From NCBI GenBank assembly GCA_027484085.1, contig JAIXQF010000001.1, positions 4,742 through 68,741 on the forward strand: 64,000 bases of DNA. Direction: 5' to 3'. Shown one piece after another: positions 3,313-53,024 of the stretch (its first letter is position 1; each line of letters begins with the position of its first letter). A model generated the notes under the pieces. It did not search any database, was not told the origin of the DNA, and saw only the letters and a program-made list of their open reading frames with translations. The DNA is from Actinomycetales bacterium (GTDB taxonomy: Bacteria > Actinomycetota > Actinomycetes > S36-B12 > UBA5976). A program made the translations under genes and the position numbers.

Positions 3313-5823
<2,511 letters not shown>

Positions 5824-9099: not shown

Positions 9100-11847
9100 A
9101 TGGATCGTCGAGTAAAAATCTCTACTGTCGGAGCACTATTTGCTGCTCTAACAGGTAGTACTTTGTTAGCCACACCGGCTTTCGCAACTGAAGACAAGCC
9201 GGTGTACGTAGTAACAGCCAATGACGCTGCTACCGTAAACCAGATTTTAGCCAGTGGCGATTCCATCGCCGGCGCTGCCAAGTGGCAGGGTATTCCAGAC
9301 GGAATGGGCGCAATCAAGAATCCAAACGGAACCGTTTCGGTTTTCGTTAATCACGAACTTGCAACAAGCGATCCTTTCGTTGCCAAAACCGAGCGTGTTT
9401 ATGGCGGCTACGGTGCGACGATTTCTAAGGTAACAACAAACGCTGCCGGCACTTCAGTTACCAAGACTGAAGACGCAATCAAGAAGGTCGCGTTCTACGA
9501 CTACTCAAATGGCACGTTTGGAACAGACGCCGTTGCCCCTGCCGGTGCTCCAGATGTTGATTCATACGGTAGCCCAAATCACACCATCAACTTGAATCGA
9601 TTCTGCTCAGCTTCCTTGGTAGAAACAGGCAACATGTCCTACGCAACCACTGGTTACGTTGGCAAGACACAAACTGTGAAGACTTTGATTACGGCTCGCT
9701 ATTGGGTTGAAATCAATGGCAAGTGGAAGCGCGTCAACGCCAAGCGTTACGTAACTGACACAGTGAAGCTATGGCAGAACTCTGCTGGCAAGTGGGGAAC
9801 CAAGAAGGTAAAGCGAAGCCTTACTTTCGGTACTAACGACCCAATCTTCCTAACTGGTGAAGAAGGTGGCGACGAGTCACGTATCTTCGGCTTGAACACC
9901 CGTACGGGTGAATTAGTGCAGTTGCCAGCCTTAGGCCTGGGCGCAGTAGAAAACGTTACTGTTGCTCCAAAGACTGGAACCACAACAGTTGCAATGATTG
10001 GCGAAGACGGCGACGTTACCGACAGTCAGCTATTCCTTTACAAGGGAACCAAGACAAAGTCAGGAACTTGGTACGAACGTGCTGGTCTAACCAACGGTAA
10101 GAACCATGTTGCCAGCATTTCTAGCCTTGTTAACGTGTCTACAACTCTTCCTTCAACAACTACTGTTGCTGCCAACGCTGCAATCACCAATGACGTGATA
10201 GCACGCGCAGTTTTGGACCGCAAGGTTATCTCTTCTGCAGTTCGTGGAAACCGTGCAATCACATCAACTAACTTTGCAATTGCAAATGGTGTAGCAACAG
10301 TCACCGCTGCAAATAGCTTTGTTACTGGTGAAGTAGTTTCTATCGCCGGTCTGACTGCTGGCGCTGCTGCAGGCATCGATGTAGCCGAAGTGAAGTTGCT
10401 ATCAGCTTCATCAACTGCCTACACCTTTGCTACAGACAGTGAAGATGTAGCTTCTGCTGCTAACACAGACATCGTGGCTACTCCAGCTGCTAACCGTGTT
10501 TTGATCACAACAGGTTCAGTTCACAACTTGAACGAAGGTGACAAGGTTTCGATCACAACTGTTGACGGACTTTCCGGTACTCATGTTGTAACTGGTGTTC
10601 CTTCAACAACTAAGTTCACCGTTGATACTGCAGCTACAACTGCGGCTACCTTCACTGTCACAGATGGAAAAGTGAACCGAGTTCTCGATGTTGACTTCAC
10701 TCCAGTGAACACAAATCAGTCAGGCCTAGCGCAGCAAGTTACTGCCAAGGCTCTGGGAACTGAGTTCTCCCGCGTCGAAGACGGTCACTTCAACCCAATG
10801 AATCGCAACGAGTTCTTCTTCGCGACTACTCAGTCTGATTCAGACGGTACCGGCTGGACTGGCGCCGCAACTGGAACAGGTGCGACTGTAAACAGCCCAG
10901 CTGTAAAGGAAGCATCAACACCAGCTCGTGATGGTGGCGCGCTTTGGAAGCTAACCTTCGTAAACGTTCTGAAGCCAGAACTGGGCGCAACTCTTGACCT
11001 AGTACTAAATGGCTCGGAAGCACCAGAAGGCAGCAGCGAAAAGCTGAACAAGTTGGATAACATCACTTTGTCAAACGATGGCACCGTTGCATTCCTTCAG
11101 GAAGACCCAGGTGGCAATGACCAGGTAGCACGTTTGCTAGCGGTTCGTTTGTCTGATCGCAAGCTTGTTTCGGTAGCGACCTTTGACTCCAACATGTTTG
11201 GTGTTGCAGGAACTGCTGGAAATGCAAACGCACAACTTACTAACGATGAAGAAACCTCCGGTATCTTCGACGCGACCAAGTTGTTCGGTGGCTCAGGTTT
11301 GACATTCATGTTCAATGCCCAGATCCATCCGGTCAGCACACTAGGTGGCTTGAACTCAAGCTCATCAGGATCCTCATTCGGTTCAGATCCACTGAAGGCA
11401 ACTGCTACTGCATTGCTTCGCCCGGATCTACGCACCCAAGCAGTGGCTGTATCAGTTACCGATGTAACTGTTGCCGATGAAGCATCATCGACATCCGGTT
11501 CCACAACTACCCACAGTCGTCGCATGACTTTGACCGTGGATAGCACAGATGCAATTGCTGCAAATGACATCATCAATGTGGTTGGTCTAACCAGAGCACA
11601 CAACGGTACTTACGCAGTGCGCTCGGTTGACACAGACCTAAAGACCGTAACGGTTGACTTGTACTCACGTACTACTGGATCGGTAACAGCGTCACGCTAC
11701 GCCAACCCATCTGTAGTGGGTACGGGCCGTCTGTTCGTAAGTAATGCTGATGAGGACTTGGCAATCAAGGATGCAATCATCGAAGGTGGCGGACTTTACA
11801 CCTTGAAGATCACATCTCTAGATGCCCTGTTTGCGCCAGTAAACTAA
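9100..11847 (+). CDS. secreted PhoX/DUF839-like beta-propeller protein (putative phosphatase) with inserted T/A/V-rich repeat domains
   Basis: Signal peptide ending TPAFATE. Motifs WQGIPDGMGA, VFVNHEL, FSRVEDGHFNP, LDNITLSNDGTVAFLQEDPGG, EETSGIFDA and FNAQIHP match my recollection of PhoX family blocks. Adjacent to the pst genes. Confidence 0.55.
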   Translation: MDRRVKISTVGALFAALTGSTLLATPAFATEDKPVYVVTANDAATVNQILASGDSIAGAAKWQGIPDGMGAIKNPNGTVSVFVNHELATSDPFVAKTERVYGGYGATISKVTTNAAGTSVTKTEDAIKKVAFYDYSNGTFGTDAVAPAGAPDVDSYGSPNHTINLNRFCSASLVETGNMSYATTGYVGKTQTVKTLITARYWVEINGKWKRVNAKRYVTDTVKLWQNSAGKWGTKKVKRSLTFGTNDPIFLTGEEGGDESRIFGLNTRTGELVQLPALGLGAVENVTVAPKTGTTTVAMIGEDGDVTDSQLFLYKGTKTKSGTWYERAGLTNGKNHVASISSLVNVSTTLPSTTTVAANAAITNDVIARAVLDRKVISSAVRGNRAITSTNFAIANGVATVTAANSFVTGEVVSIAGLTAGAAAGIDVAEVKLLSASSTAYTFATDSEDVASAANTDIVATPAANRVLITTGSVHNLNEGDKVSITTVDGLSGTHVVTGVPSTTKFTVDTAATTAATFTVTDGKVNRVLDVDFTPVNTNQSGLAQQVTAKALGTEFSRVEDGHFNPMNRNEFFFATTQSDSDGTGWTGAATGTGATVNSPAVKEASTPARDGGALWKLTFVNVLKPELGATLDLVLNGSEAPEGSSEKLNKLDNITLSNDGTVAFLQEDPGGNDQVARLLAVRLSDRKLVSVATFDSNMFGVAGTAGNANAQLTNDEETSGIFDATKLFGGSGLTFMFNAQIHPVSTLGGLNSSSSGSSFGSDPLKATATALLRPDLRTQAVAVSVTDVTVADEASSTSGSTTTHSRRMTLTVDSTDAIAANDIINVVGLTRAHNGTYAVRSVDTDLKTVTVDLYSRTTGSVTASRYANPSVVGTGRLFVSNADEDLAIKDAIIEGGGLYTLKITSLDALFAPVN

Positions 11848-26822: not shown

Positions 26823-26897
26823 GCCTCCTTAGCTCAGTGGTAGAGCGTCGCTCTTGTAAAGCGAATGTCATCCGTTCAAATCGGATAGGGGGCTCCA
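26823..26897 (+). tRNA. tRNA-Thr (anticodon UGT)
   Basis: Cloverleaf by hand: acceptor GCCTCCT/AGGGGGC, D-arm GCTCAGTGGTAGAGC, anticodon arm TCGCT-CTTGTAA-AGCGA, T-arm ATCCGTTCAAATCGGAT. CCA is encoded. Confidence 0.9.
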
Positions 26898-26976
26898 TAA
26901 CGTGACATTCACCTCAAATGTAGATATTCCAAGGCCTTCAAGTTGCCTGCAAAAATTCCTCATTCATAATTAAAAA

Positions 26977-27549
26977 ATGACGTCCAAGATTCGAGATTAT
27001 CGCCAGGCAGAAATCTTGGATGCTGCCCTAAATGAGATTCGCGCAAATGGTGTCGAGTCATTAACCATGAGCCGCTTGGCTCAGTTGACGGACTTATCCC
27101 GTCCAGCGATCTATCAATACTTTTCATCCCGTGAGCATGTACTTGCTGAATTGCTGATAGATGACCTTGCGGACTTAGTGAATGAAATCGATAGCTACGT
27201 TGCACAATTTGAAGATCCCTTAGAACGTGTTCGAGTTTGGGTCCATAGGTCCTTAAGACATTTAGCAAATGGTGATCATTCAATTATTCGCGAGATTAGT
27301 GAGTCATCTCTACCAGACGAATCGCGAGAAGTAGTGCGAGTACTTCACGGCCAATTCATGATGAGCTTGATTAGTCCCGTTAGGGAACTCGAGATTACGG
27401 CGATGGATTCGGCATGCCATATGGTTTACAGCGCAGTCCAATCCGCGGCAAAACGAATCGAAGCGGGATTTGATTTCGACTCCGAAGCAAATGCTGCAGA
27501 AAACTTCGCCGTCGCAGGCTTACTTGGAATAAAAAAGAGCCAACAGTAA
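26977..27549 (+). CDS. TetR-family transcriptional regulator
   Basis: N-terminal HTH ILDAALNEIRANGVESLTMSRLAQLTDLSRPAIYQYFSSREHV. 190 aa. Confidence 0.85.
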   Translation: MTSKIRDYRQAEILDAALNEIRANGVESLTMSRLAQLTDLSRPAIYQYFSSREHVLAELLIDDLADLVNEIDSYVAQFEDPLERVRVWVHRSLRHLANGDHSIIREISESSLPDESREVVRVLHGQFMMSLISPVRELEITAMDSACHMVYSAVQSAAKRIEAGFDFDSEANAAENFAVAGLLGIKKSQQ

Positions 27550-27578
27550 AGATACTGCTGGCTCTTTTGAGTTAGTTA
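27533..27578. terminator. bidirectional hairpin between the TetR gene and the convergent secreted-protein gene
   Basis: AAAAGAGCCAACAG ... CTGCTGGCTCTTTT stem with one mismatch, A-run and T-run on either side. Overlaps the tetR stop. Confidence 0.55.
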
Positions 27579-27583
27579 TCGAG

Positions 27584-28531
27584 CTACGGAGTAGCGACAA
27601 TCTTTGTAGTTGGTTTTTTGCCGGATTTCACTAATTCAGTTTTGATGACAATCTTGCTAGCTGAAACACCGTGCTGAACCAGATACTTCTTTATTTCGTT
27701 GGCCCGACTCTTTGCAAGGTTAGTTACTGTTTTGTTGGATAAACCTGGTGCCATACCTGCACTCGCTGTGATTGTGACTTTAGATGCGAGCCTGTAATCC
27801 ACAGACTTGTTTTTAATGTTTGATTTAGTCGATGAACTTAAAGAGCTTGCTCCAGATTTGAATGCAAATTCGCGTGAGAACTTTTTGTTCAACTTTGGAC
27901 TTGCGCTCTGCAAAATTTCGTTTCCTGGTGAAGTTGGCGGTACCGACTCCTCCGCAGTTGCAAAACTAATTGGAGTGAACGTTTCAAATGGTGCGTAGCG
28001 CGCGCCCGAACCGGCGTAGGTATAAATTCCGTATGAGCCAGCGGTTGCATCGTTAAAGATCAGGTTGTTAGAAGAGTCAGAAAGCTCCTTGGAAACTCTG
28101 AGGGTAATTTCAAAGTTTCCGCCGACAGGTAACTCAAAAGCTCCGCCAGCAGCCCCGCCTAATCCGTTAACACTCGCAGCTGGAACTAGCCATTTTGTGC
28201 GATCTGCGTCACTCATTGCGGCCAGTCTGTTTCCACTCGGCGCACTCTCACTTGGCTTCCAAAGTTCTTGGAATTTTCCGAAGGTTACGTACACCCCACC
28301 AAAAGACCCAGCAAGCGGTGGACGAGTTCCATTGGTTAGTGCTCCATTGGCCAAAAAACCGGTCCCATTAATAGTGATGGTTTCTCCGTTGCCATTTAGA
28401 TCAGTAGTTTTCGAAACACTAATAGCGGCTTGTTCGAGTGGACCGGCGATTGCTGGAGACGAAATTGCCCCACTAATCACTAGAGCGGTTGCAGTAACGC
28501 CGAAGGCGAATGACTTAAGTAGTTTCTTCAT
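27584..28531 (-). CDS. secreted protein: N-terminal beta-sandwich-like region plus degenerate OmpA_C-like C-terminal domain
   Basis: Signal peptide MKKLLKSFAFGVTATALVISGAISSPAIAG. ISVSKTTDLNGNGETITINGTGF Ig-like start. C-terminus FAFKSGASSLSS...LAKSRANEIKKYLVQHGV follows the OmpA_C pattern. Confidence 0.5.
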   Translation of the reverse strand: MKKLLKSFAFGVTATALVISGAISSPAIAGPLEQAAISVSKTTDLNGNGETITINGTGFLANGALTNGTRPPLAGSFGGVYVTFGKFQELWKPSESAPSGNRLAAMSDADRTKWLVPAASVNGLGGAAGGAFELPVGGNFEITLRVSKELSDSSNNLIFNDATAGSYGIYTYAGSGARYAPFETFTPISFATAEESVPPTSPGNEILQSASPKLNKKFSREFAFKSGASSLSSSTKSNIKNKSVDYRLASKVTITASAGMAPGLSNKTVTNLAKSRANEIKKYLVQHGVSASKIVIKTELVKSGKKPTTKIVATP

Positions 28532-28567
28532 GGTTTCTCTTTTCGATTGATTGAGATTTTGGGGTGA

Positions 28568-29071
28568 TTACTTTTTAAACTTCAACGGAACGAAGACGTC
28601 AGCTTTACGATTTGCTGATTGAGTGTGGTCAGCTCGGGTAACTACTGCGCACTTTGCAACAGTGCAATCTATCTTTCCGATGTACCGGGAGACTGTTATC
28701 TTTTTCGCGAACCCACCAGACTTTGAAAATGGCACGGCAAGTGACTTGGCATAACCAGGAGGATTAGAGGAAATCCAAATCGAGCTTGTGGAATTGCCGG
28801 CAGTATTCACGCCACCACCACAAGGACCGGGTACTGAACCCTTTGCACCGATTACACAGAAAGCGAGGTAAACGCCAAGCTTCTTGTTGTACTTGTCACC
28901 AATTACAGTCAAAACCTGACCGTCTTTCACTTCCGTTGCACTAACCGTAAGTGTCTGACCAGTTGGACCTTTGACAGTTCGCTTTGTTGATTTCGCATTT
29001 GCAGGTGTCGCTAAAAGCATTGTGGCAAGCAGCATCAATACCCAAGAGCGGAATAGCGATTGTCTAAGCAT
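28568..29071 (-). CDS. small secreted four-cysteine beta-sandwich protein (neocarzinostatin-like pattern)
   Basis: Signal peptide ending PANA. TLTVSATEVKDGQVLTVIGDKY, two Cys pairs (FCV...GPCGGG, DCTVAKCAV). 167 aa. The fold is inferred from the pattern only. Confidence 0.4.
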   Translation of the reverse strand: MLRQSLFRSWVLMLLATMLLATPANAKSTKRTVKGPTGQTLTVSATEVKDGQVLTVIGDKYNKKLGVYLAFCVIGAKGSVPGPCGGGVNTAGNSTSSIWISSNPPGYAKSLAVPFSKSGGFAKKITVSRYIGKIDCTVAKCAVVTRADHTQSANRKADVFVPLKFKK

Positions 29072-44340: not shown

Positions 44341-45770
44341 GTAAGCCAAACATTCCGAATGTTCTAGCCGGCCGTTATGCCTCAACTTCTATGGCAGACA
44401 TCTGGTCGCCAACCAACAAGATTGTGCTGGAACGCCAACTTTGGATTGCCGTGCTCCGCGCCCAAAAAGATTTAGATATCGAAGTTCCAAGTGGTGTAAT
44501 CGAGGCCTATGAAGCTGTTATCGCAAACGTCGATCTAGACAGCATTGCAGAGCGAGAGAAGATTTCGCGCCACGATGTTAAAGCACGAATCGAAGAATTC
44601 TGTGAATTAGCTGGGCACGAACACATTCATAAAGGAATGACTAGCCGCGATTTAACTGAAAATGTGGAACAACTTCAGGTGCTTGCTGGACTTAAACTAA
44701 TTCGCACCAAGGCAGTTGCAACCGCTGGAGTTCTAGCTGAACTTGCAGTTCGTTACACCGATGTCGCGCTGACCGGACGTAGTCACAACGTGGCCGCTCA
44801 AACCACAACATTGGGTAAGCGCTTCGCATCTGCTGCTGATGAGTTATTGGTAGCAATTGCTCGCCTAGATGATTTGATTGCCCGCTATCCATTGCGTGGC
44901 ATCAAGGGCCCAGTTGGAACTGCTCAAGACATGCTTGACCTACTAGATGGCGATGCCAGCAAACTTGCTGATTTAGAGTCACGGATTGCGAAGCATCTTG
45001 GATTTGCAAATGTGTTTACCAGCGTTGGTCAGGTGTACCCGCGTTCTGTTGATTACGACACAGTGACTGCATTAGTTCAATTAGCTGCGGGTCCAAGTAG
45101 CTTGGCAACCACTATCCGCTTGATGGCTGGCCATGAACTGGTAACTGAAGGATTCAAAGCAGGTCAAGTTGGATCCAGTGCAATGCCACACAAGATGAAC
45201 ACCCGTTCTTGCGAACGCGTAAATGGTTTCACCGTAATCTTGCGCGGTTACGCATCTATGGCTGGCGAACTAGCTGGCAATCAATGGAATGAAGGCGACG
45301 TTTTCTGCAGTGTGGTTCGTCGCGTTGCATTGCCAGATTCGTTCTATGCAATTGATGGTTTGTTTGAAACTTTCTTAACCGTCCTGGAAGAATTCGGCGC
45401 GTTCCCAGCAGTTATTGAACGGGAGCTTTCTCGTTACTTGCCATTCCTAGCAACTACCAAGATCTTGATGGCTGCAGTTCGCAAAGGTGTTGGTCGCGAA
45501 ACTGCGCATGAAGTAATCAAGGAACATGCTGTTACAGTTGCGCTTGAAATGCGTGGACCAAATGGCGGCGATGGAAATGCCGTGCTTGATCGCTTGGCTG
45601 CCGATGCCCGCTTAGGAATTGATCGCCAAGATTTGGAAAGCTTGATTTCCCAGCCACTTGAATTCACTGGCGCTGCTCGTGACCAGGTTGCTGCCGTAGC
45701 TGAAAAAGTTTCAAAACTCGTCGCTACTTCACCTGAAGCCGCAAACTACCGACCGGAGCCAATCCTGTGA
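44337..45770 (+). CDS. purB: adenylosuccinate lyase
   Basis: GSSAMPHKMNTRSCE fumarate-lyase signature. 477 aa. GTGA/TTGA overlaps with purD. Confidence 0.92.
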   Translation: MSKPNIPNVLAGRYASTSMADIWSPTNKIVLERQLWIAVLRAQKDLDIEVPSGVIEAYEAVIANVDLDSIAEREKISRHDVKARIEEFCELAGHEHIHKGMTSRDLTENVEQLQVLAGLKLIRTKAVATAGVLAELAVRYTDVALTGRSHNVAAQTTTLGKRFASAADELLVAIARLDDLIARYPLRGIKGPVGTAQDMLDLLDGDASKLADLESRIAKHLGFANVFTSVGQVYPRSVDYDTVTALVQLAAGPSSLATTIRLMAGHELVTEGFKAGQVGSSAMPHKMNTRSCERVNGFTVILRGYASMAGELAGNQWNEGDVFCSVVRRVALPDSFYAIDGLFETFLTVLEEFGAFPAVIERELSRYLPFLATTKILMAAVRKGVGRETAHEVIKEHAVTVALEMRGPNGGDGNAVLDRLAADARLGIDRQDLESLISQPLEFTGAARDQVAAVAEKVSKLVATSPEAANYRPEPIL

Positions 45771-46663
45771 CAATTCAGCCCACTAACTATGACTTAGGTG
45801 CTGAATTCAAGCATGTCTACTCCGGCAAAGTCCGCGATCTTTACGAAGCGCCAGATGGGCGCTTGCTTTTCATCGCCAGTGATCGCATCTCGGCCTACGA
45901 CTGGATCTTGCCTTCGGTAATTCCAGACAAAGGACGAATCCTCACCGCGATGTCGATGTGGTGGTTTGATCGCCTGCAAGGCATCGTGCCAAATCATGTG
46001 CTTTCGACAAACGTTCCAAATTCAGTTCGTGGTCGCGCAACTTATTGCGAAAAATTGGAAATGCTTCCGATTGAGTGTGTGGCGCGAGGTTACTTAGCGG
46101 GTTCGGGCTACACCGATTACTTACGCGATCAGTCGATCTGTGGCAACGGTTTGCCGCCAGGCTTAAAGGACGGTGCCAAACTTCCTAAGACGTTGTTCAC
46201 GCCGGCAACCAAAGCAGCGATTGGCGATCATGACGAGAACGTTACTTTTGATGAGGTTATAACTTCGATCGGCATGGAAGAAGCGCAGCAACTTAAGCGT
46301 TACACCACTTGGATTTACGATGTTGCTGCTGAGATTGCATTTGAGCGTGGAATCATTTTGGCTGATACCAAGTTCGAATTTGGTCTAGGTCTGGTTGGTG
46401 AAAACAAAAATCAGATCGTTCTTGCCGACGAAGTTCTGACTCCAGATAGCTCACGCTATTGGCCAGCTGATCAATGGGTTCCGGGCCAGGCTCAACCTTC
46501 CTACGACAAGCAATTTGTGCGCGATTGGCTGACCTCACCTGCATCAGGTTGGGATAAGAATTCTGGCGAAGCACCACCTGCATTGCCTGAGGATGTAATC
46601 GAAAAAACTCGCGAACGCTACGTCGCAGCTTACGAACAACTCACTGGCCAGAAATTTAGTTAG
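45767..46663 (+). CDS. purC: phosphoribosylaminoimidazole-succinocarboxamide synthase
   Basis: YSGKVRDLY, ASDRISAYD, LADTKFEFG motifs. Confidence 0.92.
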   Translation: MTIQPTNYDLGAEFKHVYSGKVRDLYEAPDGRLLFIASDRISAYDWILPSVIPDKGRILTAMSMWWFDRLQGIVPNHVLSTNVPNSVRGRATYCEKLEMLPIECVARGYLAGSGYTDYLRDQSICGNGLPPGLKDGAKLPKTLFTPATKAAIGDHDENVTFDEVITSIGMEEAQQLKRYTTWIYDVAAEIAFERGIILADTKFEFGLGLVGENKNQIVLADEVLTPDSSRYWPADQWVPGQAQPSYDKQFVRDWLTSPASGWDKNSGEAPPALPEDVIEKTRERYVAAYEQLTGQKFS

Positions 46664-46669
46664 CAGGCA

Positions 46670-46699
46670 AACCCGCAATGCAACATCACATTGCGGGTT
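46670..46699. terminator. hairpin after purC (no U-tract)
   Basis: AACCCGCAATG-CAACATCA-CATTGCGGGTT. Could terminate purC and/or the convergent tRNA-like gene. Confidence 0.45.
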
Positions 46700-46712
46700 C
46701 ACCAAGTTTGGG

Positions 46713-46785
46713 AACCCCTGGCGGGAATTGAACCCGCATCTCCAATTAAGTCAGGATTGGGCTCTTTCCATTGAGCTACAGGGGT
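46713..46785 (-). tRNA. tRNA-like gene with non-canonical anticodon arm (nominal anticodon GAC), no encoded CCA
   Basis: Minus strand ACCCCTG-TA-GCTCAATGGAAAGAGC-C-CAATC-CTGACTT-AATTG-GAGAT-GCGGGTTCAATTCCCGC-CAGGGGT-T. Acceptor, D and T arms are good. The anticodon stem has a C31/A39 mismatch and U37, or alternatively a 9-nt loop. Confidence 0.5.
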
Positions 46786-46913
46786 ACCCCAAGAGAATGT
46801 TTATCTGTGATTCATTATTTACAAACTGAGTCAAGGCGATTGTGGATAAACAACACAAGTGAGTTATCACATTCACCTATTGACAAGAATCTCCGAAGGT
46901 GTAAAAATCTTTT

Positions 46914-46995
46914 TATTGAGTCAGGATTGGATGTCGGGTAACCGACGCTCTAACCGAAAAAGGCCCGCGAAACATCTCGCGGGCCTTTTCTCTTT
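46914..46995 (+). ncRNA. speculative ~80-nt small RNA
   Basis: TTGACA (46880-46885), N17, AAAAAT (46903-46908), then an internal hairpin GTCGGGTAACCGAC and the 46957-46995 terminator. No coding potential. Confidence 0.2.
46957..46995. terminator. bidirectional rho-independent terminator; on the minus strand it directly follows the orphan 3' end of the TPP-enzyme gene
   Basis: GGCCCGCGA-AACATC-TCGCGGGCC stem (46962-46985), flanked by AAAAA on one side and TTTTCTCTTTT on the other. Confidence 0.75.
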
Positions 46996-47000
46996 TGAAT

Positions 47001-47059
47001 TACTTTTCGCCCCAGCGCGGACTTGTGCTTTTTGGTGGATACAAAGTTTCCCGAATCAA
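47001..47059. repeat. direct repeat copy A (orphan copy of the last 19 codons of the TPP-enzyme gene, own TAA stop at 47000-47002)
   Basis: 58/59 identical to 51385-51443. The only difference is 47030 T versus 51414 C, a synonymous AAA/AAG Lys change in the minus-strand frame. Confidence 0.95.
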
Positions 47060-48837
47060 AGAGATTTCAAGTTGCCTTCAATGGGTAAGTCTGCCGTAAG
47101 AATCGTTTGATTATCCTGTCGATTCCTGCTCCAAGTAATTGTGCAGGCATCCAACAACGTCGAACCAAGCCCAGCCCTTGACTGGAAATTGAAATGCGTA
47201 CCGTTATCGATAACTTCAATCGTCATTGACTCATTTATTGGATCTGAGATGCGAATAGAAATCCATTTTGCTTGTCCGTGCTGAATTGCGTTACTACAAC
47301 TTTCATGAACTATGTCCCAGCAAATTGAGGAAGTTGCTGCATCACCATTTATAACAGCACTTGCTCTAGGTGAAATGGCCGCATCAATCTGGCACAAATT
47401 TTTCCACGTTACTGCCAAATCGTTGCAAATTTTGCTGAACTCTTCTTGAGTCCCATCCCATCTCGTCTTGGGTAGTAACGCCTGCTCAACACTTGCTCGG
47501 ACCTCATCAATGATGCCCTCTTGTGTCATCTCTTCATTGGAGTTTTGAAGGCGAATAACACCCTTGTTGATTGCGCTTTGAACTGGACCATGAAGTACTC
47601 TTGCCAGCTCACCGTGCTCGAACCAATTTATGATATTGAGGCGAGCCTTGAGCCGCGATAACTCATTAATTCCCTTTAGGTACTCGCTTTCAATCCTGGT
47701 GGATTCTGCTTGAGCGGCTCCTCCGATAGCAAGGAACCAGCCGAAAACTGGCAGAATTACCAAACCACCTTTTAGGACAAACCAGGGATCGGAACTATCA
47801 CGCAGGATTATCGATGCAACAATCCCAGCGGGAATTGTTGTAATCATAAGAATCAAAGTAATAAGAAGTGCTCGCACCATAATGCTATGAATCTCGCCTA
47901 TACGAGTTGTAATTCTTGTCAATAAGTTGATAGTTAAGTACAGCGAAACAAAGCTACAAATAGTTAATGGAATAGCTAAAGCAATGCCAAAGAAAACCAC
48001 AAATGCAGTTAGTGCAGTTAGAGTTGCTAAGGACGATAGAAGTTTCGGACGAAGCGAAAGCTCAGGACGAATCTGAGTTGCTACATCGCGCCAGCGCAAC
48101 TTTAGTTCAGGAAACTCTCGAGCTCGCCATACTGGAATTCGTTGTGCCAGGCTATGGCTCAGTGGCCTAATCACTTCGGTAGCAATCAGCTTCAGGTCCT
48201 CAATCGAAATGTCATTTTCTATGCTGAATACATGCGCTAACTCATGTTCAATTGATTGCTCTATCTGATTGATTGTGCTGCTTCGTAATGCAGCTTCATT
48301 GCCAGAACTTCGTTCCAGGGCATCTCGCAACTCAGCCTGAACCTTTTGTAGGTTGTAAATTCGCTCCCTGTTTTCATCGAGAGCAGCAGCGGCATAGGTT
48401 GCAATGATTGTTGCCAAACCAAATGGAATAGCACTTCCAGGAATTCTAAAATCTAAATGAAGAGAGTCTGCCATTTCTAAGTTGAAAAAGACTATTGCCA
48501 TAACTAGTCCACGTAACGCGCCGCCAATTAGGTAGGAAAAAAGAATTAACGTAATGTGCCAGTTCTCACTCTTGATCCTTCGTGCAATCAAATGAGCCAG
48601 GGCAATTACTGCAATGCCAGGTATAAATGCAATGCTGGCAACAATTGCGCGGACAAAAAGATTTCCTTCTACTGTCCCACCATTTGGAGCCATGTGGATC
48701 AGCACACTTAAAACAATGAGAGTAATGATGACCGGGGCGCTTAGAACTCGTGAGCCAGTTGCTAGTAGTAGAAATCTTTTTAGTTTGGTTCGTTCATCTA
48801 CGCGATTCATAGTTTTAGTCTCTTCGCTTTGGGTCAT
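47056..48837 (-). CDS. membrane histidine kinase (HisKA_3/NarX-like catalytic core) with two multi-TM blocks
   Basis: Two clusters of about 4 TM helices, each followed by a coiled coil. H-box-like ARVLHGPVQSAI, N-box HESCSNAIQHGQA, G-boxes VIDNGT and GLGST. Overlaps the upstream LuxR-type RR gene. Confidence 0.7.
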   Translation of the reverse strand: MTQSEETKTMNRVDERTKLKRFLLLATGSRVLSAPVIITLIVLSVLIHMAPNGGTVEGNLFVRAIVASIAFIPGIAVIALAHLIARRIKSENWHITLILFSYLIGGALRGLVMAIVFFNLEMADSLHLDFRIPGSAIPFGLATIIATYAAAALDENRERIYNLQKVQAELRDALERSSGNEAALRSSTINQIEQSIEHELAHVFSIENDISIEDLKLIATEVIRPLSHSLAQRIPVWRAREFPELKLRWRDVATQIRPELSLRPKLLSSLATLTALTAFVVFFGIALAIPLTICSFVSLYLTINLLTRITTRIGEIHSIMVRALLITLILMITTIPAGIVASIILRDSSDPWFVLKGGLVILPVFGWFLAIGGAAQAESTRIESEYLKGINELSRLKARLNIINWFEHGELARVLHGPVQSAINKGVIRLQNSNEEMTQEGIIDEVRASVEQALLPKTRWDGTQEEFSKICNDLAVTWKNLCQIDAAISPRASAVINGDAATSSICWDIVHESCSNAIQHGQAKWISIRISDPINESMTIEVIDNGTHFNFQSRAGLGSTLLDACTITWSRNRQDNQTILTADLPIEGNLKSL

Positions 48838-49495
48838 TTATTTGCATTATGAATTCACGCGCAGCCATAACCCGGGCATTAAGGTCTCCAGCTTGCGATA
48901 TTCCAAGTGCTGAGAGAGTGCGGGTAATCAAACTCTCAGTAGCACCTAATGATCTATCTCGGATTTCAGCGATTTGAGCATTGGTTTTCCCGTCTGCTAA
49001 CAATCGCAGTACTTGAATTTGTGAATAAGACAGATGCGCCATAGGCCTATCTTCCCGTTTATCAAATCGGTATAGTTCGACATCAGTTTCTGAAAGCACT
49101 GCATTAAGGGCATCAAGTAATACTGTGGGCGAATCCAACATGTGTTTGTTCAAATACGCAGCATTAGGTTTTGCAGAATCTGTTTCGTGCCCAGCAAAGC
49201 GTGGATCAGAAAAGTTAGTGAGAAAAACAATTCCAATCTCATTTGAATTGAGATTGAGTCCTTTAACTAAATCGATTCCGGAGGGACCAGCACCTAGGTC
49301 GATGTCTAATACGAGTGCATCGGGGTCAATTAGATGAATCAATCGTGAAGCTTCTGCTGCATTACTGGCCTGGGTAACTGCAAATCCGGCCTTTGATAAA
49401 TACTCAGAGATTAATCCCCGAATAAAAGCATCATCCTCAACAATGAGCACTGAGCGAAGATGCTCTGAACCAGATGACTTTTCAGGGGTAACCAT
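48815..49495 (-). CDS. LuxR/NarL-family response regulator
   Basis: Receiver domain VLIVEDDAFIRG...LVLDIDLG...AAYLNK. C-terminal HTH LSYSQIQVLRLLADGKTNAQIAEI. Confidence 0.85.
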   Translation of the reverse strand: MVTPEKSSGSEHLRSVLIVEDDAFIRGLISEYLSKAGFAVTQASNAAEASRLIHLIDPDALVLDIDLGAGPSGIDLVKGLNLNSNEIGIVFLTNFSDPRFAGHETDSAKPNAAYLNKHMLDSPTVLLDALNAVLSETDVELYRFDKREDRPMAHLSYSQIQVLRLLADGKTNAQIAEIRDRSLGATESLITRTLSALGISQAGDLNARVMAAREFIMQINDPKRRD

Positions 49496-49510
49496 ATATT
49501 CAGAGTAATA

Positions 49511-49630
49511 GGGGGTAACCCTTGATTGAGTTTTCTATTAGGGGCTAGCCCCTAAATCCCATGCTTTATTTAAAATGCTTTACGCCATGAATTGAGAGCC
49601 AGCCCCTAATTCGTAAATCCCCAAGCTTTG
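49511..49630. promoter_or_regulatory. divergent control region with perfect 7-2-7 palindrome and a ~60-nt imperfect tandem module
   Basis: TTAGGGGCTAGCCCCTAA is an 18-bp perfect palindrome at 49538-49555 (TAGGGGC-TA-GCCCCTA). The half-site AGCCCCTAA recurs at 49601-49609. TAAATCCC occurs at 49553 and 49613, ATTGAG at 49525 and 49591, and ATGCTTTA twice at 49561 and 49575. Confidence 0.55.
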
Positions 49631-49675
49631 CGATTGCTTGAATGAGGTGGTTAGTGCCTAGATTTTGGAGATGTC

Positions 49676-51328
49676 ATGAAGAAATACATAAGTCAAACTC
49701 GACTAGTAAGAAATTCAACAGTTGTGCTTATTGCACTAGCAATGGTTTTCTCTGGCGTGAGCGCAGTGTCGGCGCGAGTCCTTGTGTACATGGGAAACAA
49801 TTTCAATAACGGCCTTGCACTCAGTTCACTTGGTACCGCCTACAATGAAAATGAGGTAACTGGAATTTCCGCAGAAGGAATAACTGGTAGCGGCGGACAC
49901 ATGAAGTATTTCTCTACAGTCAACTGCTTGGATATCTCTGACATGGACGAAGTAACCGAAATCAATCCACATACGAAATACGAAATTTTAGAGCTAGATG
50001 CATCGGGCTCGATGGGCGGAACATGTGAATTAGAATTCGAAAGAATCGCTGGAAGCGATCCTTGGGGCTGGTTTGATGCAACAACAACAACACCGGCACA
50101 AATTAGAGAAGGAATAGACGCTGGCACTCTTGCGCCAAACCAAACAGATCTCAACTTCTATGACAACAGTCCAAATGACATACCCATCATCTATGTTGTT
50201 ACCAACACAAAGGTGATATTCAAAAGCTCTTCAAATCCAAGCGCTTCATATGAAATCAAAATGAAAAGTCCGACTTCAACCGAAATTGATAACCCGGCTG
50301 GAGTACAAGGAACAACTAAGGACTTTGTTTTTGATTACGAAGCAAACTCAAATGCAGGCCCAAATGCGGCCAATAATCCACCTCAGACATTGGTTGCTAC
50401 AAGTTGCACTGGACTCGGAAATGTAGTGGGTGATTCAGCTCAAGCAATTTATGAAGCCAAAGCCCTTACCCCAACGACTACCGGAGAGCACACATTTAGA
50501 ACCGTGTTTGCTCATGATTCAACCCTGTCAGGAATCAAATGGAACGAAGGTGCAAGTGTTGGGGAGACCGTTGGATGGTCAGATGGTCTTGCTTTTGGCG
50601 GCACGGGCGCATTGCTAATCTATTCAAGTTTTGATCCGAACAATTTGGACCAAAACATTGTTGCGTGCAGCATGGAAAATTCAGCTGCTGGTGCGAGAAG
50701 CAAGACCAAAACCAAAATGGCAACAAGCTTCAGTAATCAGCCCGCTCAGCAAATTCCGTACATCATCTCTGATACTTATCCCCAGGTAACAAGCACATTG
50801 ACTGCTGGGACAACTTATACCTTGGTCTATATCCCTCTTACTTACACAGGTAAGTACGTTAGCCAAGCGCGATTCCGGGCCGTAAAGGATCTAAATAATA
50901 GCAATAGCGAAACAGTTCGCGTTGAAGTATGGCAACCACCAAGTGTTGTAACTTCAAAAACTTGCAAGTCTAAGTCGCTCGGTGATGTGAATTTTGCAGC
51001 CGATTCAGCGAAGCTTTCATCTTCTGCCAAGAAGAAACTAAACGCATACGCAAAATCAATTAAATCTTCAGGTTGCAAAAAGATCACCCTGAATGGCCAT
51101 GCTGCAACTACGTCCGGCAACTCTGGGGCGTTTAAGCAGAATCGGACTGACATTGCCAGAGATCGAAACATTGCTGTAGCAAACTACTTATCAGTGCAAC
51201 TGAAAAAGATTGGCGCCAATGTGACAATAAAGAAAGTTACTATGGCGGGCAAGAACCCAGTAGCCAGCAACAGAACATCAGATGGACGTTCTAAGAATCG
51301 TCGAGTCGCAATTATCTTGACACCTTAG
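49676..51328 (+). CDS. secreted 550-aa protein with C-terminal OmpA_C (peptidoglycan-binding) domain
   Basis: Signal peptide VVLIALAMVFSGVSAVSA. About 430 aa of N-terminal region I cannot assign. C-terminus VNFAADSAKLSSSAKKKL...IARDRNIAVANYL...NRRVAIILTP matches OmpA_C. Confidence 0.75.
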   Translation: MKKYISQTRLVRNSTVVLIALAMVFSGVSAVSARVLVYMGNNFNNGLALSSLGTAYNENEVTGISAEGITGSGGHMKYFSTVNCLDISDMDEVTEINPHTKYEILELDASGSMGGTCELEFERIAGSDPWGWFDATTTTPAQIREGIDAGTLAPNQTDLNFYDNSPNDIPIIYVVTNTKVIFKSSSNPSASYEIKMKSPTSTEIDNPAGVQGTTKDFVFDYEANSNAGPNAANNPPQTLVATSCTGLGNVVGDSAQAIYEAKALTPTTTGEHTFRTVFAHDSTLSGIKWNEGASVGETVGWSDGLAFGGTGALLIYSSFDPNNLDQNIVACSMENSAAGARSKTKTKMATSFSNQPAQQIPYIISDTYPQVTSTLTAGTTYTLVYIPLTYTGKYVSQARFRAVKDLNNSNSETVRVEVWQPPSVVTSKTCKSKSLGDVNFAADSAKLSSSAKKKLNAYAKSIKSSGCKKITLNGHAATTSGNSGAFKQNRTDIARDRNIAVANYLSVQLKKIGANVTIKKVTMAGKNPVASNRTSDGRSKNRRVAIILTP

Positions 51329-51344
51329 AGAATCTAGATGAATA

Positions 51345-51373
51345 GAAATGCCCCCTAATCCAGGGGGCATTTC
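51345..51373. terminator. bidirectional terminator at the right end of the islet
   Basis: GAAATGCCCCCT-AATCC-AGGGGGCATTTC, followed by TATTTC. Confidence 0.7.
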
Positions 51374-51383
51374 TATTTCAAAT

Positions 51384-53024
51384 CTACTTTTCGCCCCAGC
51401 GCGGACTTGTGCTCTTTGGTGGATACAAAGTTTCCCGAATCAAGATAATTCCTGGTTGCTTTAGATCTAGCGCATCGCCCAAATCTTCGATTGTGGTTTC
51501 AGTGAATGACAATCCAAAGGATTGCGCCAGGATGGCCCAATCTGGAGAGACCAAGTCCACACCACGCTCCGGATGACCCATAACTTGTTGGTCGTAGCGA
51601 AGCATTCCGTAGCCACCGTCATCAACGATTAACAACGTGTAAGGCAAGTTTTCTTGCACGATGGTTGCAAGTTCACCAAGCGCGAATGCCACACCACCAT
51701 CACCGCAAATGGCCAAAGTGCGACTACCGTTTGCAGCTGGACCGATCGCTGCTGGCAATCCGAAACCTAATGTTCCCCAACCAACTGGATAAACAATGCG
51801 ACGGGATCGTGGCTGTTCGGCATAAACGCCAGTCCAATAACCACAGACAGACATGTCGCAAACGATCGTGCCATCTGCTGGCCAATGCTTTTCGATTGCT
51901 TCAACAAGCGCGATACCACGTTTTGATTTTTCGCCCACTCGCAAACGATCACGCACCGTCTTATTAACGGATGAAACATCAACCCAAGATTCGCGAGCTG
52001 AAGTTCCTGATACCAGTGCAGAAGCAACCCCATTGATGTTGTTGTTCAAAACAACTGCAGTTGGATCAACATTGCGCATCGTTTTTGTCGGTTCCACATC
52101 GATAAGCACAATTGTCTTTGGCCAAGAAATCGCCCAGTTCTTGGTATTCATGCCATCTAGTTGGCTACCGAAAACTACAAGTGCATCAGCATCTGCAAGA
52201 ACTACTTCCGTTTCTGGTTCATGAATTGGCGCTACCAAAGTTAATGAAGAATCAGCCGCAATTCCTCGACCAGCAAATGAAGTGAGAATTGGTGCATTCC
52301 AATGTGAGGCAAGTGCGGAAATTGAATCTGAAGAATCAACTGCGCCACCACCGGCCCAAATCACAATTTTCTTTGCGTCAGCAAGCGCAGCTTGTGCTGC
52401 TGCGATATCAATTTCAATTACTTCTTGACCGATTTCAAGTTTTGGCTTTTCACCAGTGAATGGCTGAGCTAAGACATCGGCTGGGATTCCTAAGTAGCCG
52501 GCTCCAACAGGTGCGCGGAGTAAGTCACGAATCATTTCAGCTGCAACATCAACAGCGGTCACACCATCAGTAACGCTGACTGCCATAGATACCCCAGCAA
52601 GTTTCTTGGCTAGGGGAGCAAACATGGCTGCCTGATCATCCATCTCGTGAAGTAGTCCACGAGCGCCATCTTTTGATCGTTTGCCAATTGGTGCTTCGGA
52701 TGAAATCACAAAAACCGGAGAGCCACTTATGGCAGCTTCACCAAAGGCGCCAAGGGTATTTGCCGCTCCCGGGCCAGTTGTGGTCAATGCCACACCAAGT
52801 GATCCAGTGGTGCGCGCCACGCCATCAGCTGCATAAGCAGTCGTCTGCTCATGACGAACCCCAACAATGGCAGGGCGGTTTGGACCAAGTGCATCCCAGA
52901 ATGCCAAGTTGTGAACACCTGGGATTCCAAAAGTGGTCCTTACTCCTGCTTCCCAGAGTAAATCTAGGATTACCCCGGCTACAGTTTGCTGGTTCGAAGT
53001 GGCATTGTTAGACATGTAAATCAC
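51384..53024 (-). CDS. thiamine-pyrophosphate enzyme of the acetolactate-synthase/2-keto-acid decarboxylase superfamily
   Basis: N-terminal Pyr domain GIPGVHNLAFWDAL...HEQTTAYAADG. C-terminal ICGDGGVAFALGELATIVQENLPYTLLIVDDGGYG TPP motif. 546 aa with no small-subunit partner. Confidence 0.8.
   Translation of the reverse strand: MIYMSNNATSNQQTVAGVILDLLWEAGVRTTFGIPGVHNLAFWDALGPNRPAIVGVRHEQTTAYAADGVARTTGSLGVALTTTGPGAANTLGAFGEAAISGSPVFVISSEAPIGKRSKDGARGLLHEMDDQAAMFAPLAKKLAGVSMAVSVTDGVTAVDVAAEMIRDLLRAPVGAGYLGIPADVLAQPFTGEKPKLEIGQEVIEIDIAAAQAALADAKKIVIWAGGGAVDSSDSISALASHWNAPILTSFAGRGIAADSSLTLVAPIHEPETEVVLADADALVVFGSQLDGMNTKNWAISWPKTIVLIDVEPTKTMRNVDPTAVVLNNNINGVASALVSGTSARESWVDVSSVNKTVRDRLRVGEKSKRGIALVEAIEKHWPADGTIVCDMSVCGYWTGVYAEQPRSRRIVYPVGWGTLGFGLPAAIGPAANGSRTLAICGDGGVAFALGELATIVQENLPYTLLIVDDGGYGMLRYDQQVMGHPERGVDLVSPDWAILAQSFGLSFTETTIEDLGDALDLKQPGIILIRETLYPPKSTSPRWGEK
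51385..51443. repeat. direct repeat copy B (functional 3' end of the TPP-enzyme gene)
   Basis: 58/59 identical to 47001-47059. Encodes LIRETLYPPKSTSPRWGEK on the minus strand. Confidence 0.95.

Follow-up and report, generated by a model that had tools for sequence, protein, structure and literature searches.

How did three genes without a recombinase come to lie between two copies of the end of a neighbouring gene? The segment 47060-51443 of the 64-kb window analysed here (the whole stretch of DNA, 64,000 nt) is a chromosomal flexible-genome islet of a freshwater acI (Nanopelagicales) actinobacterium. It comprises 4,384 bp with three genes, for a LuxR-type response regulator, an atypical histidine kinase and a secreted OmpA_C protein, and Pfam searches agreed with the content given in an earlier note made from the sequence (Table 1). 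We give an even chance to the reading that the insert arose by a Campbell-type insertion and was later spread and lost by homologous recombination; the cassette looks like an old single-crossover insertion, now moved by ordinary recombination, and not like an active mobile element.

Table 1. Features of the insert and its flanks in the 64-kb window
Feature	Position	Strand	Basis or remark
purC, conserved right flank of the apparent hot spot, convergent with the TPP gene	45767..46663	+	ORF
tRNA-Val(GAC)	46711..46785	-	ARAGORN; Rfam tRNA, 51.3 bits
16-nt copy (15/16) of the tRNA-Val anticodon arm	46915..46930		170 nt upstream of the tRNA
Bidirectional intrinsic terminator, ancestral TPP terminator	46958..46989		13-bp stem, 8 GC pairs, flanking A and T runs
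Copy A, displaced ancestral TPP 3' end (19 codons), now a gene fragment	47001..47059	-	TAA at 47000-47002; adjoins the ancestral downstream flank
Atypical membrane histidine kinase, 593 aa	47056..48837	-	Pfam: HATPase_c only, 19.6 bits, below cut-off
Response regulator, REC and LuxR/GerE HTH	48815..49495	-	Pfam: Response_reg 4.1e-13, GerE 1.8e-4
Divergent control region, GGGG-N-CCCC-type palindromic boxes	49496..49675		Repeat search
Secreted 550-aa protein, C-terminal OmpA-type peptidoglycan-binding domain	49676..51328	+	Pfam: OmpA 9.3e-9
Cassette hairpin terminator, perfect 16-nt arms	51341..51377		Repeat search and terminator prediction
TPP-dependent enzyme gene, 546 aa, left flank and insertion target	51384..53024	-	Pfam: TPP_enzyme_N, _M, _C
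Copy B, functional last 19 codons of the intact TPP gene	51385..51443	-	Stop TAG at 51384-51386

One gene end in two copies

The direct repeats of 59 nt each that had been proposed as the borders were recovered at exactly the positions given, 4384 nt apart and identical at 58 of 59 sites. Read on the minus strand, both copies encode LIRETLYPPKSTSPRWGEK, the last 19 codons of the TPP enzyme, and their sole mismatch (47030 T/51414 C) is, as had been said, a synonymous Lys codon (AAA vs AAG). Only these two copies occur in the whole window when up to 3 mismatches are allowed, and no such match appeared in 100 dinucleotide-preserving shuffles. The identity ends sharply at the inner repeat edge: the flanking 57 nt upstream of each copy are alike only at shuffle level (853 of 2000 score as high), and the terminator regions beyond copies A and B share a weak likeness (20 of 2000). 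Among 14 species, no other 59-nt block of the TPP gene is conserved as well as these last 59 nt (0.909 vs a mean of 0.844, rank 1 of 27).

The assignment of copy A as the original gene end is borne out, since the same series of TAA, terminator and tRNA-Val follows a single TPP end in L009, L005, L012 and L033. The terminator itself is 94-99% conserved directly 3' of the TPP stop in L002, L007, L009, L011 and L026. The first 4 nt of copy A now supply the stop of the kinase gene (TGA, 47056-47058). Copy B completes the intact TPP gene, as was also claimed, and is followed by a hairpin that in L081, a locus with a related cassette, still adjoins the OmpA gene with no TPP end beside it. The hairpin therefore belongs to the cassette; it is the terminator of the OmpA-like gene and, at present, of the TPP gene as well. 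A duplicated target 3' end with the ancestral flank on the far copy has the topology of a single reciprocal crossover, which upholds the topological half of the earlier proposal of site-specific integration. That topology is seen directly in the locus; the enzyme responsible we infer.

In composition, the insert differs from its surroundings to a smaller degree than had been stated. Its GC content is 43.8% vs 48.1% elsewhere in the window, about 6 SD below windows of the same size (mean 48.0%, SD 0.66%, minimum 46.3%), so the reported drop is real; the 32-37% quoted for it is not, as 500-nt windows within the insert span 42-46%. Codon usage is only mildly unusual, with chi-square ranks of 3, 15 and 31 among 57 genes, and GC3 of the insert genes is 0.33-0.40 vs 0.42 ± 0.03. 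The contrast with the flanks thus stands, although its magnitude had been overstated.

Empty sites and the spacer between the TPP gene and purC

Orthologues of the TPP gene were found at loci L001-L080, and a purC orthologue adjoins it in 27 related loci. All 27 of these acI loci carrying both genes lack the cassette, in line with the prediction that empty sites would mark it as an insertion relative to relatives. L009 represents an almost identical empty site, with 96% identity over the terminator and tRNA islet. Identity to L009 is 92-98% along a tract of ~650 nt that extends from within the TPP gene (final ~125 nt) into purC (final ~140 nt), and ~80-86% in the flanks outside it; a high-identity tract within diverged flanks is the footprint of a homologous exchange across the site. 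The spacer between the two genes varies in length (7-17, ~102, 140, 319-344, 330-419, 524 and 608-620 nt) and is either empty or occupied by a terminator, a tRNA-Val islet, a ParE/Phd module or single ORFs. Judged by these sequences, it appears to be a hot spot of recombination, in which no fewer than seven different contents alternate.

The gene described earlier as tRNA-like is a bona fide tRNA-Val(GAC) by ARAGORN and Rfam. It forms part of a variable islet of ~340 nt (terminator, promoter-like site and tRNA), being present in L005, L009, L012 and L033 and absent from the 10 loci with a TPP-purC gap of 7-17 nt. The anticodon-arm fragment also lies 3' of the terminator in L002, L007, L011 and L026, all of which lack the tRNA.

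That the cassette is ancestral here, a retained gene block lost by independent deletions from the 27 empty genomes, we regard as very improbable. Its divergence between lineages (76% nucleotide identity to L081) does equal or exceed that of the flanks (78-84%), and the A/B repeats would permit precise loss. Very many independent precise losses would nevertheless be needed, including one in every GTDB species representative recovered; the 7-17 nt spacers of 10 loci lack even the terminator, and the duplicated gene end is itself an insertion scar. In distant relatives, moreover, the cassette sits at another locus, between MFS and carotenoid genes.

Related cassettes and the route of insertion

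Diverged cassettes in other lineages encode kinases with 77-81% amino acid identity, and their kinase stop is likewise fused to this TPP fragment (L126, L127, L128 and L081), so that the event is neither recent nor private and the cassette is old. L081 has flanks that resemble L045 (95%, 89% and 87% identity). Its fragment, A', is by contrast the allele of the window group: over 78 nt it shares no more than 73% identity with the TPP end of the same genome, and a toxin-antitoxin module lies between the two. This arrangement argues for block transfer and not for attB integration at the TPP end, an argument that draws on a single genome, L081, as the only one with both copies available. A 34%-identical cassette in L095 and L129 lies between two copies, each 318 nt long and 96.5% identical to the other, of a GNAT gene's 3' end, with the ancestral flank again on the fragment copy and L130 as the empty site. 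The different target and repeat length in L095 argue for homology-driven rather than sequence-specific recombination.

A Campbell-type insertion would have begun with incoming DNA in which the cassette was accompanied by a duplicate of the TPP gene's final 59 bp. One reciprocal crossover with the resident TPP end would let the cassette-borne copy B, with its TAG and the cassette hairpin, complete the gene and would displace the resident end A, with its TAA and terminator, by 4.4 kb as a fragment inside which the kinase ORF terminates. Both the crossover and the later spread would be the work of host homologous recombination acting on DNA acquired from relatives, the cassette, the attached fragment and the terminator moving as a block between lineages, and recombination between A and B could remove the cassette precisely. 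Genes for mobility are absent from the islet itself. The ComEF uptake operon is found almost throughout Nanopelagicales, where recombination occurs often (PMC12817590). Two points count against this reading: an integrase acting in trans would give the same topology (the integrase search within the source genome covered the 64-kb window), and a homology-driven circle requires a prior event joining the TPP 3' end to the kinase gene. A third is that DNA acquired by transformation usually arrives as linear single strands, from which Campbell insertions do not result. A fourth lies in copies A and B of the window, which have in common a derived CGC codon missing from the close relatives compared at this place; it would call for a recent event within the lineage or for gene conversion.

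A decayed or trans-mobilised integrative element would account for the same arrangement if an attP carrying the TPP 3' end had been integrated into attB by a site-specific tyrosine or serine recombinase, now lost or encoded elsewhere, the repeats being attL and attR. We consider this unlikely, though not without weight. The topology, with its gene-preserving duplication, is classic for integration at gene 3' ends, a 59-bp identity block is within the range of actinomycete integrative elements, empty sites exist, the outer edge of the repeat falls at the stop codon both in the window and in L095, and the fragments resembling an anticodon arm close to the terminator hint at earlier tRNA-directed events. 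The integrase itself is the part of the earlier proposal that found no support. No recombinase, and hence, as the earlier note had it, no integrase, transposase or excisionase, was found by Pfam in the three insert genes; recombinase families had no match among ten otherwise unassigned ORFs of the window or in eight other cassette loci, as seen in the gene tables of five of them (L081-L086) and the Pfam scans of L093, L094 and L096. Nor was one among the eight ORFs of L095, in a scan that lists only families at E <= 0.01. No integrase-bearing element occupies the TPP 3' end in the 27 related loci. The kinase matched nothing in viral contigs, plasmids and phages, nor did a 29-mer of the repeat in viral contigs. 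Two independent decays would also be needed, each leaving the same three gene types, and the order of L081 does not fit attB integration.

We judge it decidedly unlikely that the insert arose by an illegitimate event that involved no circular intermediate and duplicated a long stretch of the target. Such an event could proceed by a homology-facilitated route, with a left anchor in the TPP gene and a right-hand junction 59 nt upstream of the stop, or by a template switch at a broken fork that copies the cassette and re-enters the template upstream of the break. The unequal repeat lengths (59, 86, 100 and 318 nt in the window, L091, L130 and L095) speak for it, as do the sharp inner repeat boundary with no extended similarity and the unconstrained kinase tail before the repeat, where seven residues read EGNLKSL in the window and KIIQQIS in L128; one-sided homology also best explains L081. 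Illegitimate events, however, usually delete rather than duplicate recipient DNA, and by sequence alone they are hard to tell from the Campbell-type insertion. Homology-facilitated illegitimate recombination is documented in several bacteria (PMC3240628).

Cargo and comparison with known systems

The kinase belongs to a family of 39 members with a conserved RPLSH motif and an invariant His228. Its ATPase domain is closest to those of DevS, DosT, DesK and VraS, and no known domain was found in its multi-pass N-terminal region of about 480 aa. As in the HisKA_3/NarL-type systems DesK-DesR, DevS-DevR and VraS-VraR, a LuxR/GerE regulator and a membrane sensor lie beside an adjacent target gene; unlike in those systems, the cassette kinase has no match to Pfam HisKA_3 and its HATPase_c score is below the gathering threshold. 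The control region contains the perfect palindrome TTAGGGGCTAGCCCCTAA within 49537-49558, and GGGG-N-CCCC-type boxes recur in the corresponding regions of L081, L126, L082, L085 and L095, so these boxes are likely operators of the cassette regulator. The OmpA-like protein, whose closest solved structures are Rv0899/ArfA and PA0833-PD, is encoded by the variable member of the cassette, and unrelated secreted proteins take its place in other cassettes. We infer a self-contained sensing module, in which the HisKA_3-like kinase and the LuxR-type regulator probably act via the palindromes on their own operon and on the peptidoglycan-anchored secreted protein, the basis for control of the latter being gene arrangement and motifs.

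The elements e14 and phage 21 at the 3' end of icd in E. coli are prophages or remnants with their own integrase and excisionase. Like them, the islet brings an alternative gene 3' end that keeps the gene intact and displaces the original end to the far side; unlike them, it has no recombinase, its cargo is a two-component system with a surface protein, and in related cassettes both the target and the length of the repeat differ. CIMEs are att-flanked, integrase-less and cis-mobilisable derivatives of ICE accretion, for example those related to ICESt1 and ICESt3 at the fda 3' end in Streptococcus thermophilus. They resemble the islet as small non-autonomous inserts between direct repeats that duplicate a protein-gene 3' end, but CIMEs share att sites with a cognate ICE that related strains carry at the same locus, and no ICE or integrase was present at the TPP 3' end in the 27 loci.

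Planktophila and other Nanopelagicales carry small additive flexible genomic islands at conserved hot spots beside tRNA genes (PMC12817590). These share with the islet the order, ComEF genomes, frequent recombination and cargo linked to the cell surface or niche, whereas GI2-4 are reported as tRNA-flanked and the islet has the two copies of a protein-gene end as its borders. What single-crossover integration duplicates is precisely the stretch of homology, irrespective of its length or sequence. Campbell integration and homology-facilitated illegitimate recombination (PMC3240628) are likewise anchored in homology and are known mainly from laboratory constructs and from transformation or conjugation experiments. 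If the reading favoured here is true, Campbell-type recombination would have a natural and recurrent role in building the islets of streamlined actinobacteria.

A duplicated gene end and its empty counterparts

The insert is bounded by 59-nt direct repeats that lie 4384 nt apart and are identical at 58/59 positions, the single difference being a synonymous Lys codon; the repeats and this difference are as the earlier note had described them. A search of the whole window found these two copies only, and no window shuffle produced a match. On the minus strand, both translate to LIRETLYPPKSTSPRWGEK, the C-terminus of a 546-aa TPP-dependent enzyme, and the open reading frame adjoining copy B is complete at 546 aa, so that the target gene is intact despite the insertion, as proposed from the sequence alone. 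On the inner side, repeat identity breaks off sharply and the following 57 nt match at shuffle level (853/2000), while the regions past the two stop codons show a marginal likeness (20/2000 shuffles). Copies A and B have a CGC codon in common where the close relatives compared have CGT; they are thus each other's closest relatives, which implies an event within the lineage or gene conversion. Two extensions of the repeat were considered: an inward one, in which the 7-aa kinase tail seemed TPP-derived (11/20 nt match), did not rise above the shuffles (853/2000) and was rejected, and an original duplication that included the terminators may have occurred but is marginal (20/2000), both being generic A-tract/GC-hairpin/T-tract terminators.

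Coordinates of the features discussed, in the window and in related loci
Feature	Locus	Positions	Detail
Repeat copy A	Window	47001-47059	Stop TAA
Repeat copy B	Window	51385-51443	Stop TAG
Mismatch between copies	Window	47030 / 51414	T / C
Strong bidirectional terminator after copy A	Window	46958-46989
Perfect hairpin after copy B	Window	51341-51377	16-nt arms
TPP gene	Window	51384-53024	Minus strand
Kinase stop codon	Window	47056-47058	TGA, within copy A
tRNA-Val anticodon-arm copy	Window	46915-46930 vs 46745-46760	16 nt, 15/16
GGGG-N-CCCC boxes	Window	49485-49612
GGGG-N-CCCC boxes	L081	2147-2220
tRNA-Thr(TGT) and following genes	Window	26823-29071
Secreted-protein gene	Window	27584-28531	Weak OmpA-domain match
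915-aa protein gene	Window	9100-11847
GNAT direct repeats	L095	343-660 / 5206-5523	318 nt, 96.5% identical
tRNA-Arg(TCT) partial repeat	L091	2220-2305 / 4237-4322	86 nt, 89.5% identical
Direct repeats upstream of rhodanese gene	L130	1-100 / 970-1069	100 nt, 98% identical
Repeat-built open reading frame	L087	4000-6100	~75-nt (25-aa) units

A scan with the TPP protein, taking one genome per GTDB species, recovered 80 loci, all from acI/Nanopelagicales-type actinobacterial MAGs. Both the TPP gene and purC were present in 27, as convergent neighbours in 27/27, and the kinase, regulator and OmpA-like genes were found in none of them (0/27); the search for unoccupied sites that the earlier note had proposed therefore returned an empty site at every locus with both flanks. 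Between these conserved syntenic flanks, the spacer has at least seven alternative contents.

Contents of the TPP/purC spacer in the 27 loci carrying both genes
Spacer length (nt)	Loci	Content
7-17	10	Empty of content
~102	4	Just a terminator
140	1 (L020)	Different hairpin terminator, without tRNA
319-344	5	Terminator and tRNA-Val islet
330-419	2	Single small ORF
524	2	Other sequence and a different tRNA-Val
608-620	3	Two small ORFs; L001 and L045 match a ParE/Phd toxin-antitoxin module

One of these loci, L009, corresponds exactly to the window in its empty state: a single TPP end, TAA, and the same terminator, promoter-like region and tRNA-Val, with 96% identity over the 333 nt of the terminator-tRNA islet and ~84-87% in the coding flanks. 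This arrangement identifies copy A and its terminator as the ancestral gene end, in agreement with the polarity proposed earlier, which the empty sites and the near-identity of L009 across the junction confirm. The hairpin that follows copy B is part of the cassette itself: in the related contig L081, it stands beside the OmpA-like gene without an adjoining TPP end.

The site shows further small variations. In L001, L045, L024 and L081, a ~600-nt two-gene block is placed exactly after the TPP stop codon; in L081, where the annotation is a ParE/PhdYeFM toxin-antitoxin module, it separates the TPP end from the cassette. Identity to that copy is 89% in L045 and 80% in L001; L024 matches only part of it, at 69% over 369 nt. 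A copy of the tRNA-Val anticodon arm, 170 nt upstream of the tRNA itself, lies just past the terminator; such fragments also occur in L002, L007, L011, L026, L003, L004, L081 and L128. Genomes with the other tRNA-Val variant have a fragment matching that variant, and where the tRNA is lacking, only the fragment remains. It could be an old scar of att type. A deletion scar was rejected, since what follows the fragment in loci without the tRNA is not the tRNA 3' half. Rfam returned nothing except tRNA at gathering score over 45500-52000.

Cargo, composition and the search for a recombinase

By Pfam, the insert encodes a REC+GerE regulator (Response_reg 4.1e-13; GerE 1.8e-4, slightly under gathering score), a 593-aa membrane kinase and a divergently transcribed 550-aa protein with a C-terminal OmpA domain, and it has no other sizeable open reading frames. 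The kinase matches HATPase_c at 19.6 bits (cut-off 26.4) and does not match HisKA; its family of 39 proteins has an invariant His228 in a conserved RPLSH motif, and by weak PDB matches its ATPase domain is closest to DevS, DosT, DesK and VraS. The regulator is predicted to be of the NarL/LuxR type. The third gene encodes a secreted or surface protein in every cassette, but these proteins are unrelated between lineages: OmpA_C proteins in the window, L081 and L094, Flg_new or fn3 proteins in L085 and 555-850-aa proteins without domains elsewhere. In the cassette-bearing contig L087, the gene divergent from the regulator is a very large open reading frame built of tandem repeat units, and it appears to encode a giant repetitive surface protein.

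Palindromic GGGG-N-CCCC boxes were present in the regulator-proximal intergenic region of every cassette copy examined (the window, L081, L126, L082, L085 and L095). Those of the window include the perfect palindrome TTAGGGGCTAGCCCCTAA, and two boxes lie 54 nt apart in both the window and L081. These boxes are candidate operators of the LuxR-type regulator, and the cassette likely comprises a membrane sensor that would regulate its operon together with the neighbouring wall-anchored protein.

The GC content of the insert is 43.8%, against 48.1% for the remainder of the window; segments of equal size elsewhere average 48.0% (SD 0.66%, minimum 46.3%). The low GC reported in the earlier note is thus a significant but small drop, with values of 42-46% in 500-nt windows in place of the 32-37% counted by hand. 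First codon positions account for it (0.46-0.57 vs 0.59), with a partial contribution of GC3 (0.33-0.40 vs 0.42 +/- 0.03). In synonymous codon usage, proposed as a further check, the insert genes rank 3, 15 and 31 of 57 genes and are not clearly atypical, and all kinase homologues come from freshwater actinobacterial genome and metagenome contigs. Strong compositional foreignness was rejected on a GC drop of 4.3 points together with this codon usage, and given also the source of the homologues, the inserted DNA is not markedly foreign.

The absence of an integrase, transposase or excisionase from the insert, remarked on earlier, was borne out by Pfam, which assigned its three genes to REC/GerE, weak HATPase_c and OmpA only. 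No recombinase was found among the ten window open reading frames that had not been placed by eye, which encode transporters, acetyltransferases and similar proteins; the remaining window genes are apparently housekeeping. One window gene encodes a 915-aa protein with a signal-peptide-like N-terminus and without a Pfam domain. Among other cassette-bearing loci, no integrase was seen in the gene tables of L081-L086 or in Pfam scans of L093, L094 and L096, and none at E <= 0.01 among the eight open reading frames of L095. A phage or plasmid origin was rejected: kinase relatives were absent from viral contigs (searched with the kinase profile), plasmid records and phage genomes, and a 29-mer of the repeat had no match in viral contigs. 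A transposon or IS differs in encoding a transposase, absent here, and in producing short duplications of 2-15 bp vs the 59 bp found; no terminal inverted repeats at 47060/51384 were among the inverted repeats listed. The insert also differs from a CIME in having no cognate ICE or prophage at the same site in related genomes, the 27 spacers holding terminator, tRNA, toxin-antitoxin genes or small ORFs only.

Diverged copies and cassettes at other genes

Right junctions of the cassette were recovered from L126 and L127 (within the 90%-identity protein cluster of the window kinase), L128 (kinase 77% identical) and L081 (81%). In all four, the kinase frame continues into the TPP 3'-end fragment, where its stop codon has an identical position (T TGA TT or T TAA TT), and the fragment is followed by its stop codon and the same terminator. 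The fragments carry replacements, STGHRW in L128 and R>Q and E>K in L081, which would not be tolerable in a functional TPP end, yet their identity to the window copies is still 85-86%. Past the conserved kinase end (LPI), the last seven residues before the stop show no relation between the window and L128. Judging from these junctions, the cassette is old and travels together with its TPP fragment. A metagenome scan with the single kinase protein gave no match, and one with the kinase profile gave only relatives at 50% identity or less, with no further same-site carriers having both repeats.

Both TPP ends are present on the L081 contig, with 73% identity to each other across 78 nt. The best match to the L081 flanks is L045 (TPP end 95%, toxin-antitoxin module 89%, purC 87%), in which TPP, toxin-antitoxin module and purC follow one another without the cassette. 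In L081, the TPP end (L045-type allele) and its TAA are followed by the toxin-antitoxin module, 68 nt of unassigned origin, the hairpin, the OmpA-like gene, the regulator, the kinase, the fragment (window-group allele) with its TAG, the terminator and purC. In this single genome, the far copy does not carry the recipient's own allele, as re-use of an att core would require, and attB integration in the TPP end of an L045-like genome would not produce such an order. Rather, it looks like a transfer of the block of cassette, fragment and terminator, anchored on the purC side. A possible third, degenerate TPP-end copy left of the hairpin (L081 718-785) was discarded since its similarity was non-significant.

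A parallel case, L095, was found by self-comparison of all cassette-bearing loci. Its GNAT homologues suggest a Rhodoluna-like lineage, and its kinase is 34% identical to that of the window. Regulator, kinase and a 555-aa secreted protein lie between direct repeats 4863 nt apart, each corresponding to the 3' two-thirds of a GNAT gene that encodes 149 aa. The layout matches that of the window: the repeat reaches as far as the stop codon, the complete gene is the one that borders the cassette, and the ancestral downstream flank lies next to the fragment copy. L130 provides the empty site (GNAT 90% identical), L129 a second occupied site, and L131 has a different 451-aa gene at the same spot. In L091, a complete tRNA-Arg(TCT) directly follows the cassette kinase, and a partial copy 2 kb away, consisting of the 5' half and upstream sequence, forms with it a pair bracketing a 402-aa secreted-protein gene. 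L130 itself has direct repeats around a 263-aa gene; the stop codon of this gene falls within the second repeat, which recalls the fusion of kinase and copy A. Other cassette copies lie between MFS and carotenoid genes, and no flanking repeats were found at that locus (L082, L085).

Route of insertion and its meaning

The insert resembles an integrase-mediated gene 3'-end element in its att-like repeats, intact target and unoccupied sites (27/27 empty), and differs from it in having no tyrosine or serine recombinase. Of the site-specific integration proposed in the earlier note, the insertion, its polarity and the gene-end duplication stand; no recombinase was seen in the insert or near related cassettes, and the L081 fragment is not the recipient's allele. 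A lost or trans-acting integrase, which would account for the att-like features, is therefore an unlikely explanation, though one we still take seriously. Different targets and repeat lengths, with the same kind of cargo and no recombinase, argue against two parallel decays of integrase-bearing elements and favour recombination duplicating whatever homology was used. A purely illegitimate insertion with duplication, which could also leave a repeated gene end, is less likely still, and we consider it improbable.

Traces of homologous exchange are present at the site. With the insert removed, comparison of the window (46526-51509) with L009 gave a ~650-nt block at 92-98% identity inside ~80-86% sequence, spanning the last ~125 nt of the TPP gene, the islet and the last ~140 nt of purC; on this identity profile, we interpret it as a recombination tract across a hot spot. 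Across 14 close species, no other 59-nt block of the TPP gene is as well conserved as its terminal one (0.909 vs mean 0.844, rank 1/27), which has a third-position identity of 0.77 vs 0.62. Together, the tract and the conserved block indicate that the convergent gene ends act as homology arms for spacer exchange. The site shares with flexible genomic islands at recombination hot spots both the alternative contents between conserved flanks and the tracts reaching into flanking genes. In Nanopelagicales, the ComEF operon is nearly ubiquitous, recombination is frequent and small additive islands occur beside tRNAs (PMC12817590). The tRNA-Thr(TGT) of the window, followed by a 190-aa apparent TetR-like ORF and two secreted-protein genes, may mark another such additive islet.

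By its topology, the insertion was a single crossover of Campbell type within the final 59 bp of the TPP gene. That host homologous recombination at the hot spot carried it out is the more likely explanation, to which we give about an even chance. As a component of the flexible genome, the islet is fixed and non-autonomous; it is not an active mobile element.

Nanopelagicales dominate lake bacterioplankton, and they combine large flexible gene pools with tiny genomes that contain few mobile elements; to our knowledge, the route by which additive islets enter these genomes is poorly understood. The interest of this locus lies in its clean resolution into occupied, empty and alternatively filled states, with a recombination tract and a gene end duplicated without a recombinase, and in the recurrence of such long duplications in streamlined freshwater Actinobacteria. 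With a second cassette of the same family showing the same architecture at a different gene, culturable Planktophila offer a direct test of host recombination vs a hidden integrase. The cassette joins an uncharacterized sensor family to rapidly swapped cell-surface proteins and is a plausible player in phage or grazer avoidance. As a speculative and doubtful generalization, streamlined freshwater Actinobacteria might build additive islets by a route that is recombinase-independent, or at least not element-encoded, with gene-end cassettes, target duplications of 59-318 bp and the kinase-regulator-surface-protein module as one recurrent passenger. If so, this module would have entered at least two unrelated target genes, in two families, and a homology-driven 'Campbell cassette' would be a general route of pangenome growth in genomes nearly free of mobile elements.
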